From assembly GCA_963666285.1 (NCBI GenBank), contig OY762711.1: 64,000 nucleotides of DNA; one strand, written 5' to 3'. The position numbers and the translations under genes were made by a program. The notes below the pieces were generated by a model. It was not told the DNA's origin. It saw nothing but the letters and a program-made list of their open reading frames with translations, and searched no databases. Shown one piece after another: positions 10,867-19,964 of the stretch. Each line of letters starts with the position of its first letter. Positions within the stretch are counted from its first letter, which is position 1. Source of the DNA: Sedimentisphaerales bacterium. Its GTDB lineage: Bacteria; Planctomycetota; Phycisphaerae; Sedimentisphaerales; SM23-30.

Positions 10867-11394
10867 ATGAAAAACGAAAATAATAATCCAGAAAATGAAC
10901 TAATTGATTCCGGATTGGAAAAAGAACAGGTTCAGCAATTTTTCGATAATATGAAATATGTCGGCCAGGCCTTGGATGAACATCAGCCTGAGCCTTCATC
11001 AGGTTTCAATGATCGGATAAAAGCTGCAGTATATGCTGAGCTTGATTCGAATACCCGTTACTATTTTATTTCCCGTCACCATATCAGGACTATACTCGCA
11101 ACGGCTGCGATGCTGCTGGTAGTATTTAGTCTGGTGTTCTATCATATGGATCCTAAAGACAGCAAACCAGATGGTGGTACAGAAACAGGTGTAGTAGCGA
11201 GTGCCAATACTTCCGACAATCCATTTCTAGAACCGGATTTGATAATGGAAGTATTAATGGATCAGCAGGGCGCCAACAGTATTGACGGTATGACCCTGGA
11301 AGCAGTCTCCGCGATGTGGGGACAAGATAATCAGAACGATCAGGATAATTCATCCTCCTTTTGGAAAGGAAAGAACAATGAAAGCGTTGTATAA
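10867..11394 (+). CDS. Putative single-pass anti-sigma factor
   Basis: Directly downstream of the ECF gene, with one TM helix ATAAMLLVVFSLVF. Confidence 0.65.
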   Translation: MKNENNNPENELIDSGLEKEQVQQFFDNMKYVGQALDEHQPEPSSGFNDRIKAAVYAELDSNTRYYFISRHHIRTILATAAMLLVVFSLVFYHMDPKDSKPDGGTETGVVASANTSDNPFLEPDLIMEVLMDQQGANSIDGMTLEAVSAMWGQDNQNDQDNSSSFWKGKNNESVV

Positions 11395-12583
11395 CATAAT
11401 TGCTATGGTTGCTTTAACAGCATTAACAGGAACAGTATTAGCCCAGGAATGTCCATATTCTGGAGGACAGCAGCAGGGCGGTCCACAGCAGGGTGTTTGC
11501 CCAAGTGAAGATTTAGCACCAGCTCCTGAATCAGAATTGCCGGGCGATCAAGGTTTTGGCCCGCGTCGCGGACAGGGAATGGGTAGAGGTAATGGTTTTG
11601 GCCAGGGACTTGGCAGAGGTAACGGTTTGGGCGAAGGTATGGGAATGGGTAGAGGTCAGGGTCGCGGTCAGGGCTTTGGCGGTCAGCAGATGGGCTTCGG
11701 TCCTCGCGGCGGCGAAGGCTTTGGTCCTGGAGAAGCTATGAAAGAAAGAGCTGAATGCAATGAATGCGAACAGGAAGCGGTTGCATCAGAACGCGGACAG
11801 GGCTTTAGACAAGGAATGGCACGCGGTTTTGCCAGAGGTCAGGGATCCGGTCGCGGCATGGGTATGATGCAGGGTCGTGGCCAGGGCAGAATGCAGGGTT
11901 ATGCTATGAGAGGCCGCGGACAGGGCTTTGGCGGTCAGCAGATGGGCTTTGGTCCTCGCGGCGGCGAAGGCTTTGGTCCTGGAGAAGCTATGAAAGAAAG
12001 AGCTGAATGCAATGAATGCGGACAGGAAGCGGTTGCACCAGAACGCGGACAGGGCTTTAGACAAGGAATGGCACGCGGTTTTGCCAGAGGTCAGAGATCC
12101 GGTCGCGGCATGGGTATGATGCAGGGTTGTGGCCAGGGCAGAATGCAGGGTTTTGCTATGAGAGGTCGCGGTCAGGGCTTTGGTGGTCAGCAGATGGGCT
12201 TTGGTCCTCGCGGCGGCGAAGGCTTTGGTCCTGGACAAGCTATGAAAGAAAGAGCTGAATGCAATGAATGCGGACAGGGCTTTAGACAAGGAATGGCACG
12301 CGGTTTTGCCAGAGGTCAGAGATCCGGTCGCGGTATGGGTATGATGCAGGGTTGCGGCCAAGGCAGAATGCAGGGGTTTGCTATGAGAGGCCGCGGACAG
12401 GGCTTTGGCGGTCAGCAGATGGGCTTCGGTCCTCGCGGCGGCGAAGGTTTTGGTCCGTCTCCTCTTGCAGATTGTCCGGAATTTGAAGGATGCCAGGATT
12501 TTGGCCTTCGCAGGAAAATGATGAATCGTGGTTGGGGCCAGGGAAATGGCTATAATCGCGGTTTTGGAAGAGCGATGAGATAG
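11378..12583 (+). CDS. Secreted Gly/Arg/Gln/Met-rich tandem repeat protein with CxxC motifs
   Basis: Signal peptide ending VLA-Q; 84-aa repeats each containing ECNEC. Confidence 0.8.
   Translation: MKALYNIIAMVALTALTGTVLAQECPYSGGQQQGGPQQGVCPSEDLAPAPESELPGDQGFGPRRGQGMGRGNGFGQGLGRGNGLGEGMGMGRGQGRGQGFGGQQMGFGPRGGEGFGPGEAMKERAECNECEQEAVASERGQGFRQGMARGFARGQGSGRGMGMMQGRGQGRMQGYAMRGRGQGFGGQQMGFGPRGGEGFGPGEAMKERAECNECGQEAVAPERGQGFRQGMARGFARGQRSGRGMGMMQGCGQGRMQGFAMRGRGQGFGGQQMGFGPRGGEGFGPGQAMKERAECNECGQGFRQGMARGFARGQRSGRGMGMMQGCGQGRMQGFAMRGRGQGFGGQQMGFGPRGGEGFGPSPLADCPEFEGCQDFGLRRKMMNRGWGQGNGYNRGFGRAMR
11669..12455 (+). repeat. Intragenic tandem repeat of 252, 252 and 225 bp units plus a partial fourth
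   Basis: The anchor CAGGGCTTTGG(C/T)GGTCAGCAGATGGGCTT recurs at 11669, 11921, 12173 and 12398. Confidence 0.95.
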
Positions 12584-15203: not shown

Positions 15204-16580
15204 TTAGAACTGGAACTGAAGCTGGCTGCGAACCATCATAAGAGCTTCGCCAGCAACACCCTGGTAGTTTCCACCGCTTGAAACGCTACCAGCAGGCATT
15301 TCGTCAACGTAAGTCAAGTCCATAGAAAGTTTCAGGTTCTGACCGTTGATGTAGTAGTTGAAGCCACCGGTATATTCATACAGGTCACCAGAATTGTCGA
15401 TGTCTAAACCACCGATGCGTCCAAACAATTCGAATTTTTCAGGAACGATAAACTGACCAACCTGGCCGTACCATCCCATGTTGTCAATGCTTTCACCGGC
15501 AATACTATTTGCAGCGATATAAGCATCAGTAGGATCCGCACTCTGAATGAAACCTTCCAGAGTAGCAGAGAACCCTTTGCATTTGTATGACACATCAGCG
15601 CCGAACATAGTCATTTCGCCCTGGTAGCCGCCAAAACTGGAATAGCCACCGCCAACAGCAGGAGCGTAAATTACATAGTTGTTATCGATACCGCCATTGT
15701 AACTTTCTTCGTCCATTTCCTTAGCATAAACAACACTACCGCCAAGCATCATAACCGGAGCATCATGATAAGCCAGGTCAGATTCGTTAGCGAAGTCTTT
15801 AACTGTAGCGCCCATAAGAGGAAGTGCAACCCTGGCAACAACAATTGGAGTATTGTCACTATTGCCGGCAGTTACTTCATTGTTGTCTCTTAAACCTTCA
15901 AATAAACCAACACGGTAGTTAACCATGCCAAGGTCACCATAACCTTCGATACCAGTCATACGGCCCATATCAAAGGCATAGGCTACCAGACCGCGGTCAA
16001 TAGCCATGAATTTACCGCTACTGTTTGGACGCTGTTTGCCAAATAAGCAATCGTTTGTTCCGCCTCTGATACCAAATTCCTTAGAGAATTTGTATGCCAG
16101 CCATCCGCTATACAGGTAAGCGTTGTGGCTGTTGTCATCGTCCATATCCAGCTGGAAGAAGTATTCCAGATTTTTCATGGCATGACCGGAGAAGATCAAA
16201 CGCATACGTTCGAGTTCCAGACGGCTGCTATCGGTTGTGGTGTTGTCACCATTACCAAAGTCACCATGTGAAACAGTTGCGAATGTATGACGAAGCTGGA
16301 AACGAGATTTGATATCCAGACGGAATTCATCGTCTGCACTCTTGATGTAGAAGTTTTTGTCATATCCAGCAGTCAAACCACTATCGGCAGACTGGCTGAG
16401 GTTTTTCTGCTCTACAAGTTCGCTCATTAATTCAGCGTTACGGTCTTCCATCTGTGATTTTAAAGCAGAAAGTTCTTTCTCCAGAGAGTCTACTTTTGCT
16501 TCCAAATCTCCAGTACCTGCCGCACCGGCTACAGCGGCTGTGTAGAGCACCGCTGCCAACATAATAATAATCTTTTTCAT
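15204..16580 (-). CDS. Outer membrane porin, OprO/OprP-like
   Basis: Signal peptide, N-terminal coiled coil, GYDKNFYIKS.D..F motif and C-terminal RSQLQFQF beta-signal. Confidence 0.8.
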   Translation of the reverse strand: MKKIIIMLAAVLYTAAVAGAAGTGDLEAKVDSLEKELSALKSQMEDRNAELMSELVEQKNLSQSADSGLTAGYDKNFYIKSADDEFRLDIKSRFQLRHTFATVSHGDFGNGDNTTTDSSRLELERMRLIFSGHAMKNLEYFFQLDMDDDNSHNAYLYSGWLAYKFSKEFGIRGGTNDCLFGKQRPNSSGKFMAIDRGLVAYAFDMGRMTGIEGYGDLGMVNYRVGLFEGLRDNNEVTAGNSDNTPIVVARVALPLMGATVKDFANESDLAYHDAPVMMLGGSVVYAKEMDEESYNGGIDNNYVIYAPAVGGGYSSFGGYQGEMTMFGADVSYKCKGFSATLEGFIQSADPTDAYIAANSIAGESIDNMGWYGQVGQFIVPEKFELFGRIGGLDIDNSGDLYEYTGGFNYYINGQNLKLSMDLTYVDEMPAGSVSSGGNYQGVAGEALMMVRSQLQFQF

Positions 16581-17318: not shown

Positions 17319-17795
17319 ATGAAGTCTTCAAAAATTAAAATAGTAGCTTTATTGATATGTTGCGGCCTGCTTGTGGCAGCAGGTTATAATAAAGCACAAA
17401 GTTCTAAAAATGAATCAATCGGATCTTCGTCAGTTCGTCCTGTTTCAGATGTAAGTGACTGTGGTTCCGGCGGTTGCGGCGGTAAAAAGGAAAAGACATC
17501 TGATTGCAGCAGCGGTTCGTGCAGCAGTGCCAAATGCGAAGATTGCAGCGGCTCGTGCAGTAGTGGAACCAAATGCGAAAAGGACTGTGGTTCAGGCGGC
17601 TGTGGAGGCAAGAAAAATGAAGACGTGAATATCAGTAATTCAAATGCCGAGAAAGCGTTGATGGCATGCGGCTGTGGCGGCAAGAAGGGTAAAGGTGATA
17701 AGGAAGAACTGTATCAGTCTTCTGATAAGTCTCTTGTAGCCTGTGGCGGCGGCTCATGCGGCGGCAAAGGTAAGAAAGAAAAAGAAAGTGTGTAA
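17319..17795 (+). CDS. Secreted Cys/Gly/Ser/Lys-rich repeat protein (metallothionein-like or RiPP-precursor-like)
   Basis: AAGGAG RBS, signal peptide and six Cys modules (CGSGGCGG x2, CSSGSCSS, CSGSCSS, CGCGG, CGGGSCGG). Confidence 0.8.
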   Translation: MKSSKIKIVALLICCGLLVAAGYNKAQSSKNESIGSSSVRPVSDVSDCGSGGCGGKKEKTSDCSSGSCSSAKCEDCSGSCSSGTKCEKDCGSGGCGGKKNEDVNISNSNAEKALMACGCGGKKGKGDKEELYQSSDKSLVACGGGSCGGKGKKEKESV

Positions 17796-18179: not shown

Positions 18180-18431
18180 ATTTAAATATTACAGCAATTT
18201 AATTTTTATGCTTCGCATCACTTTGTGGCGTGTTCGCTTTTTCCTGTTGCTTCTTTGTCAGCCTTATCCTGGCTGCGGCAAAAACCTGAACAGAAAATAT
18301 TGAAGACCCTGAGTTTGCTATGTATATAATAATACTATGTAAGGTGTTGATAAAAAAAGAGGAAAGCAGCTTATGCCGCAATCCTCTTATTTTGATCTGA
18401 ACTAACAGTAAATATTACCATCAGTCTAATT

Positions 18432-19964
18432 TCAGCTTTTAGCAGTAATTGTAATCTCTTTCTTCTCTTCGATCTTACCGGCCAGAGGCCCGGCATCAAG
18501 GGAAATTGTCACAGTGTATTTACCGGCTTTTGGTTCTCGCCACGAGAACCCGCAAAGGCCGCCTCAACCATACTCCAGATCTTCAGAGGCAATTTGATTA
18601 TTGTCCTGATCAGCTATAGTAATATGAACCGGGATACCTTCTCTCCTGGTGCGGTTTTCTTCCTTGACGAGTTTATAAAAATCCCGGTAGGATTCTTTGG
18701 CGTTTCCAATGAAATCAACATCCAGATAAACGTGGGTTCCTTCGGCAAATTCAGATTTATACTCTTTATCCCCGTTGTAGCGTTTATTATACTCTACAGC
18801 GGTGATTTCCGTTTTTACATCTCCAAGTTCGACTTCGGTAGTTTTGTCAGCTTCAACGGAAAAAGAAGATTCACCTTCAAAAGAGGTACTGAATTCGTCA
18901 GTACTGTCTTTACCGAACTTTATCTGTCCATAAGAAAATCTGTAATCGCCAACCGGCAGTTCATTGATACCTTTATTGAACCTGAAGTTGATAGATCTGT
19001 CAGTTGCACCGTAAACAATGGCATAGGTCAAATCAGCTTTAAGCTCTTCTTTTCCTTTGAGCTTGATGGCAACCTTTCCGCGTTCACCTTTGTCTTCGGC
19101 TACAGTAGCGGAAAGAGTATCGTCGCTGGTGTCAGCATCATCGAATTTGATACGATAGAATTTGTCATTGAAGTAATTGATCGAACTTAGCGTATTGCTG
19201 TTGACATATCTATTGGTTTCGCTGCCTTTGACAATGCCTATGCTGCTGTTGCCGAATTTTGTATAGCTGCCGGCATGAAACGAAGTGAAAAGGTACACTT
19301 TGTATTCTTCGCCTTCGACTTTAGCTGTGCCTTCGAACATGCCCATCGGAGTCCAATAGGCACTCAGGTTGCCATTGTCGTTCAGCCTGGTACAAGCCAT
19401 TATCCTGAATGGAATTTCATTATTGTTACGTGTTTTATTTTGGAAATCAGGAGTTACAAAACATTTTCCATCGCCAAAAGGATTATTACCATTTTCTATG
19501 GGGCTGATTTTTTCATTTTCATCCAGCTTACCATCGCCGTTGAGGTCGAAGTATAGAGTGATAACAGAGTTGTCTTTCAGCTCAAACACCCCCGGACTGC
19601 CGCCTGGGAAATTTGATGTGTTGCATGCAATAAGCTTGTTTTTGGTTTGTTCCTGGACAGCTTTGAAAAATGTAGAATCGCTGCTGGTGGAGGTACCAAA
19701 CCCATACCAGCCGCAGGACGGATCAATATCGTCCTGTGTGCCGCTGCATCCACGATACTTCATTTCGAAAGTAACAGGCTCGCCGAGCTTTAACTGGCTC
19801 CAGTCGGGCGACTGCTCTTTCTTCTCCGGTTTTGTGCTAACCTGTTCTTTAACAGGTTCGGGCTGAACAGGAGTTTCAGTATCGGTTTCTTTTTTACATC
19901 CCGGACATACCATAATCCCGCAGATCAACAGGATCAGAGGCAGTCCCCGCCAAAGTTTCTTCAT
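18432..19964 (-). CDS. Lipoprotein, probable selenoprotein (UGA at 18566-18564 read as Sec; G-U-GGL-C motif)
   Basis: Lipobox-like CPGC after MKKLWRG. The track ORF stops at EYG-TGA, but the frame stays open for 43 more codons (GGLCGFSWREPKAGKYTVTISLDAGPLAGKIEEKKEITITAKS). A hairpin lies 13 nt after the UGA. Confidence 0.75.
18532..18550 (-). promoter_or_regulatory. Bacterial SECIS-like hairpin
   Basis: GGUUCUCG-UGG-CGAGAACC: perfect 8-bp stem with a G-containing loop, 13 nt downstream of the in-frame UGA. A lower stem GGC.UUU/AAA.GCC is possible. Confidence 0.7.

Follow-up and report, generated by a model that had tools for sequence, protein, structure and literature searches.

The N-terminal (alpha) domain of DsbD/ScsB has an Ig-like fold, carries a redox pair of cysteines and is partnered with a thioredoxin fold. 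Bacterial genes with an in-frame UGA and a bSECIS element, as summarised in the Fig. 2A legend of a 2026 review (PMC13188914), share with the gene studied here a G-containing 3-nt loop at 21 nt, an 8-bp upper stem and the SelA/B/C/D machinery; the bSECIS model given there covers the range of 16-37 nt downstream of the UGA and has an apical G. The Sao system of Clostridia, as outlined in a preprint by Haft and Gwadz (bioRxiv 10.1101/2022.07.06.499078), comprises extracytoplasmic selenoproteins whose gene neighbours code for an ABC transporter and for double-cubane reductases, a setting also seen here. Among catalogued families, Hypothetical protein DG (NF049953, listed motif GUxG) shares the short motif Gly-Sec-x-Gly with our protein, and MG2, S-layer and T9SS-CTD Ig-like domains have a fold like its last domain (Z 8-9.6, rmsd 2.4-3.1 over 80-105 residues).

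In this work, we analysed a gene located in the window, i.e., the whole stretch of 64,000 nucleotides of Sedimentisphaerales DNA. Comparative genomics makes it almost certain that selenocysteine (Sec) is inserted at residue 467 by UGA recoding, and the product is very likely an exported selenoprotein of 510 residues, likely lipid-anchored. Its C-terminal module is predicted to have an Ig-like fold with a putative redox pair, in general terms like the DsbD/ScsB alpha domain (PF11412), but it bears Sec and sits C-terminally on another scaffold, and a DsbD-type membrane domain was not seen. While the context resembles that of the Sao system, no member matches a Sao model, and the neighbours score far below the SaoX/SaoP cut-offs. 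The MG2, S-layer and T9SS-CTD domains are structural and lack the Sec/Cys motif; the common fold shows no function. In the sampled genomes, Sec forms of the module far outnumber Cys forms, whereas the review text states the reverse for nearly all selenoenzymes. The module would represent a new family within a known kind of bacterial selenoproteins, adding to the catalogue a large, multi-copy, multi-phylum family with a non-thioredoxin fold. New here are the Cys forms fused to a CxxC redoxin, the co-occurrence with a NapH-like protein and the non-selenoprotein formate dehydrogenases of the relatives.

The extended reading frame and the selenocysteine machinery

The frame at 19964-18432 on the minus strand encodes 510 residues when its single internal TGA, codon 467 (18566-18564), is read as Sec. 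Beyond this codon there are 43 sense codons up to the true stop, also a TGA (18434-18432), and Cys471, the predicted resolving partner of Sec467 in view of the conservation of a Cys at +4, is encoded four residues on (18552-18554). The in-frame TGA, the open codons and the Cys had been pointed out in a preliminary description of the locus, and all of them are borne out. As also foreseen there, standard annotation truncates the protein: under table 11 the gene ends at residue 466, the database relatives P0003-P0006 all terminate one residue before the UGA, and each of the members examined is cut short or divided by gene callers.

The N-terminus is basic and hydrophobic up to Cys23 (19896-19964, minus strand; pattern recognised by eye) and likely serves as a lipoprotein signal with an atypical lipobox, with a likely lipid anchor at Cys23; its Gly-Cys-Lys pattern recurs in P0003-P0005 and one paralog. 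Export is likely across the family; a crude hydrophobicity test of the signal was positive in 64 of 76 members vs. 19 of 39 control frames. The contigs of runs X1 and X2, both from one sample that is possibly the window's own source, span the stretch with zero differences. A terminator-like hairpin with a U tail (18352-18388, minus strand) lies 3′ of the extended gene and not of the internal UGA; it is a consensus match only, of a kind found three times vs. 3.3 expected in shuffles.

The preliminary description had made its proposal dependent on selA, selB, selC and selD. The machinery proved complete, with selA, selB and two selD genes over the cut-off and a tRNA-Sec of 76 bits. TGA is an ordinary stop in this genome, ending 449 of the 2572 frames of at least 300 codons, and the sole tRNA with a TCA anticodon is tRNA-Sec.

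Several further features of the genome were noted. The catalytic position of the second selD (G000:C1:1953390) is encoded by an in-frame TGA, for which our hairpin score finds a 3-bp stem only; SelB may therefore read other shapes here. A long frame at G000:C1:5221493 (minus strand) contains a TGA that is followed by 215 open codons and by a 7-bp stem whose loop is similar, and is possibly a further selenoprotein gene. The SelD encoded at L022:15147-16778, like its relatives, is extended at the N-terminus by a Cys-rich segment and carries an AhpD/CMD domain at the C-terminus.

Within the window, the gene is an orphan located far from the sel locus, between the gene of an RlaP-type nucleotidyltransferase and a convergent gene (17319-17795, plus strand) for a small Cys-rich protein. 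The latter, of 158 residues, has a signal-like N-terminus and repeated Cys-Gly/Ser-rich motifs, gave no match in Pfam and NCBIfam scans, and is possibly a metal-binding protein or a peptide precursor. A Porin O/P-type gene (15204-16580, minus strand) matched the model of ExtI, a selenite-operon porin, weakly (39.9 bits vs. a cut-off of 150), and a Gly/Gln/Arg-rich tandem-repeat protein (11378-12583, plus strand) is encoded behind the genes of an ECF sigma factor and of a likely anti-sigma factor.

The UGA site and its hairpin in paralogs and homologs

Seven module genes are present in this genome, each of them with TGA in the same alignment column. Four are long and lipoprotein-like, and a fifth, short and anchored, lies directly upstream of selA; of the remaining two, the first runs on into F5/8-type C and LamG domains and the second into a multi-pass membrane domain. 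In the loci retrieved, 101 sites were aligned (103 matches minus two with a gap at the site; L176, a chance match of 16 bits, was left out, and L043, bearing an N run, was left out of the trees). The codon was TGA at 90 of these sites, TGC at three (one of which, L114, is a weak row that may not be a member) and that of another residue at eight, while TAA, TAG and TGG did not occur at all; homologs ending at EYG with TAA or TAG, which would have contradicted the proposal, were thus absent. The TGA and the sequence downstream of it are kept together, as had been expected. The true ends of 85 such genes were TGA in 33, TAA in 31 and TAG in 21, none of them less than 37 codons after the UGA, and the +4 Cys was kept in 76 of the 90 TGA members and absent from 14.

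The hairpin proposed earlier, an 8-bp stem with a UGG apical loop starting 13 nt after the UGA, was found at 18550-18532; its loop lies 21 nt from the UGA, which by our own scoring falls inside the bSECIS range. Taken alone, it is weak (z = -1.5 vs. dinucleotide shuffles); when the peptide is recoded synonymously, a stem of at least 8 bp arises in 5.4% of cases. It is as a family feature that the hairpin is significant, and not by itself. Among the 449 long frames of this genome that end in TGA, eight combine at least 35 open codons with a stem of at least 7 bp, and five of these eight belong to the module family. The paralog hairpins covary: pairing is at 94.6%, four of the eight pairs are changed on both sides, and the score was reached by none of 500 shuffles. 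Since the paralog structure was taken from one row and related rows can beat shuffles, more weight is to be given to the larger test on 90 members, where a stem of at least 7 bp was found in 70 TGA members, while 100 synonymous shuffles gave such a stem in 7.0 members on average and in 13 at most; 20 of the 90 lack it. Only one of 11 non-TGA sites has such a stem. Around a conserved Trp, the amino acids vary in step, such that the codons of the two arms stay reverse complements.

Could the UGA nevertheless be a true stop, a codon for Trp or Gly in a changed code, or the result of a sequencing error or a pseudogene lesion? All database entries do end at the UGA, the gene's real stop is likewise TGA, and the single hairpin is weak. 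Even so, we regard this explanation as very improbable, as the same codon recurs at about 230 distinct sites, TAA and TAG are absent from the aligned sites, and a stop there would remove the last three strands of the predicted sandwich. Recoding to Trp or Gly in particular was rejected in view of the use of TGA as an ordinary stop, of the sole TCA tRNA being tRNA-Sec and of TGG at none of the 101 sites.

In 41 genomes of the order, the module was found in 13, and all 53 matches have an in-frame TGA (52 have one TGA, and one weak row has more stops). SelA is encoded in 11 of the 41, all of them among the 13 module-positive ones; the two module-positive relatives without selA are 78% complete and carry tRNA-Sec. 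In a sample of 401 genomes of the phylum, the module occurred in 42 and selA in 290, so that selA does not imply the module, and 39 of the 42 module genomes have selA. One of the three module genomes without selA has SelB matches over the cut-off along with TGA forms. The other two, which are the clear Cys-only genomes, show neither selA nor SelB, have no tRNA scoring over 51 bits and have lost the hairpin. A DNA-pattern scan of GTDB genomes gave at least 137 stretches, with 139 of 140 sites among the matches listed scoring at least 44.9 bits; as the pattern required TGA, these sites were not counted toward the TGA share. The 80 GTDB matches listed come mostly from Planctomycetota and Verrucomicrobiota, with single bins of BRC1, Hydrogenedentota, Riflebacteria, Acidobacteriota and Actinomycetes.

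Homologs with Cys at the site, also anticipated, do exist as a minority: besides the three genomic sites, 19 of 102 aligned domains from a 50%-identity protein library have Cys there (15 as CxxxC), vs. 15 with a gap or end and 68 with other residues. Such a library cannot show TGA forms whole, and these are under-counted because they are cut at the site; moreover, some of its non-Cys rows are remote and perhaps lie outside the family. The 68 domains with neither Cys nor a gap imply that copies survive or decay without Sec and, like the TGA members lacking the +4 Cys, speak against a site that is uniformly essential; 47 of the 102 have Gly, Ser, Arg, Leu or Trp, one-step neighbours of TGA. In the tree, Cys forms are located at about five places among Sec tips; given the low support and the midpoint root only, a Sec-first ancestry of the family is suggested, and not more. 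Because Cys forms are rare and unnamed, searches based on Cys/Sec pairs miss such families.

Predicted fold and catalogued families

A model of residues 50-510, built from a 50-row alignment, was almost all beta (pLDDT 92.3, pTM 0.86), which supports the earlier suggestion of a non-thioredoxin fold; neither this model nor the U-x3-C spacing fits a thioredoxin-fold UxxC selenoprotein. The N-terminal all-beta scaffold (18819-19817, minus strand; about 330 residues) is common to the long members, and an iterated profile of the scaffold alone matches 109 of 110 of them; no family match was found for the scaffold. The C-terminal module with the G-U-G-G-x-C motif (residues 383-510; 18435-18818, minus strand) is modelled as an Ig/MG-like beta-sandwich, with Z 8-9.6 to S-layer and macroglobulin domains. 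Sec467 and Cys471 are predicted to lie on one beta-hairpin of this last domain, at the turn between two strands.

The preliminary description could assign the U-x3-C protein to no familiar family, and the NCBIfam, Pfam and PDB sequence searches agree with this. NCBIfam gave no family for the window protein or for eight members scanned, and one weak match to an Ig-like model (E 0.004) for 50 members; Pfam gave only weak GEVED, FlgD_ig and MG2 rows. The catalogue comparison covered the entries with NCBIfam or Pfam models, as distinct from those known by CDD or PANTHER models alone. The 172-position model of NF049953 was tried and rejected, matching none of seven paralogs at E 10 and none of 50 members, with a best score of 17 bits, at other places, vs. 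a cut-off of 130 bits. A search of PDB sequences with the 50-member profile gave nothing below E 0.67, and Foldseek returned weak multi-Ig matches only (TM at most 0.22). No sequence match of the module to PF11412 was found (probability 0.15), nor was the DsbD alpha domain among the best 50 structural rows. The family is absent from the selenoprotein entries of Table 1 in PMC13188914, a comparison that covers the text of the table, and a literature search returned no description of it, although the supplementary lists of recent surveys may include it. The catalogue text of that review never mentions Planctomycetes, the phylum in which, as noted above, most sampled genomes have selA.

Gene neighbourhoods and the probable function of the module

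Unlike the orphan gene of the window, other members lie in clusters that include selA/selB/selD and the genes of a NapH-like membrane iron-sulfur protein, an ABC transporter, outer-membrane barrels and a methyltransferase/double-cubane/activase operon. A further neighbour is a carboxypeptidase-regulatory repeat protein with a terminal thioredoxin-like domain without CxxC; CxxC was lacking from this domain in five of five examples examined beside Sec forms. The NapH-like gene, sought with one protein query, was present in 12 of 13 module-positive and in none of 28 module-negative relatives. The double-cubane enzyme occurs in nine of the 41 relatives, all module-positive. Formate dehydrogenase was found in seven of the 41, in none of them with an in-frame stop, which makes the module family a candidate for what maintains Sec there. 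The co-occurrence of these genes may be due simply to a single mobile selenium island that carries them, and kin are not independent.

In six library representatives, an AhpC-TSA/Redoxin domain is fused to the module (the Pfam scan for fusions covered 15 of 116 library matches). Five of the six redoxins have CxxC, and five of the six modules have Cys at the Sec site, all six being non-Sec forms; the fusions belong to one clade and thus may stem from one event. A complex prediction for a Cys-form module and its fused redoxin scored 0.02, which speaks neither for nor against an interaction. In the membrane-bound form, no Cys pair of the membrane domain is invariant. These natural fusions offer a one-gene, selenium-free handle on the chemistry.

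Based on the motif, the redoxin fusions and the co-occurrence, we consider it probable, with some reserve, that the module is an exported selenol/thiol redox module. SelB would bind the hairpin to insert Sec467, which, outside the cytoplasm, could attack an oxidised substrate; Cys471 would then resolve the adduct, giving a Se-S bond. This bond might be re-reduced by a thioredoxin-fold partner or by the membrane-bound family members, the latter possibly fed from the quinol pool via the NapH-like iron-sulfur protein. By analogy with the Ig-fold alpha domain of DsbD/ScsB, the variable beta scaffold may pick the substrate or the place. Judging from the neighbourhood, selenium or sulfur compounds are candidate substrates. 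Points against this overall reading are the TGA members without a 7-bp stem or the +4 Cys, the library domains with neither Cys nor a gap at the site, the thioredoxin-like domain devoid of CxxC, the restriction of the redoxin fusions to one clade of non-Sec forms, the membrane domain with no invariant Cys pair and the orphan position of the window's gene.

The same neighbourhoods also suit a selenoprotein that runs through no catalytic redox cycle and whose Sec/Cys pair serves to bind a soft metal or metalloid (Hg, Cu, Ag, As) or to deliver selenium itself to the outer-membrane barrel and the ABC transporter encoded nearby. The sel genes, a transporter weakly like SaoX/SaoP, the barrels and the double-cubane operon, confined to module-positive relatives, would fit, as would the like context of the Sao system in the preprint; CopC is also among the Ig-fold matches, at a Z of 7.3 that is level with many unrelated rows. 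We nonetheless find this explanation rather unlikely, as the fusions of Cys forms to CxxC redoxins and the NapH-like partner fit electron transfer better, and the 50-member alignment shows no other conserved metal ligand.

Alternatively, Sec might act mainly as a selenium-dependent switch or store, read-through completing the last and downstream domains only with selenium, and the Se atom having no chemical job. The apparent leader frames before selenium-supply operons, which are cut-down family copies, and the many intact library homologs in which Gly, Ser, Arg, Leu or Trp takes the place of Sec would agree with this. It appears distinctly improbable in view of the retained +4 Cys, the CxxxC forms that arose at several places in the low-support tree, and hairpin loss, which tracks Cys substitution.

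With the redox reading preferred, a broader picture is conceivable, on which we would not insist: the module may be part of a selenium-dependent redox system, as yet undescribed, in the envelope of anaerobes of the PVC superphylum. In this system, an Ig-fold Sec-x3-Cys module, Sec-first and not Cys-derived, would occur in up to nine copies per genome, borne by scaffolds of the lipoprotein, secreted and membrane types, would be fed by the NapH-like protein and would be the main reason why Sedimentisphaerales keep the Sec machinery, its coding fragment having been recycled into selenium-sensing leader attenuators.

At L271:7071-7400 (G000:C1 about 379070-379400, plus strand), a degenerate family fragment with a UGA and a hairpin off by one base closes a short frame; between this frame and the methyltransferase/double-cubane/activase operon lies a strong terminator-like hairpin that has a U tail. 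From its sequence, this is a second candidate Sec-sensing attenuator in the genome. A short leader frame with UGA and hairpin is also located before the ABC transporter-selD-selC operon (L022:12135-12290; G000:C1 about 4442135-4442290, plus strand), and similar short frames precede selenium-linked operons in genomes G005, G027, G029, G033 and G040.
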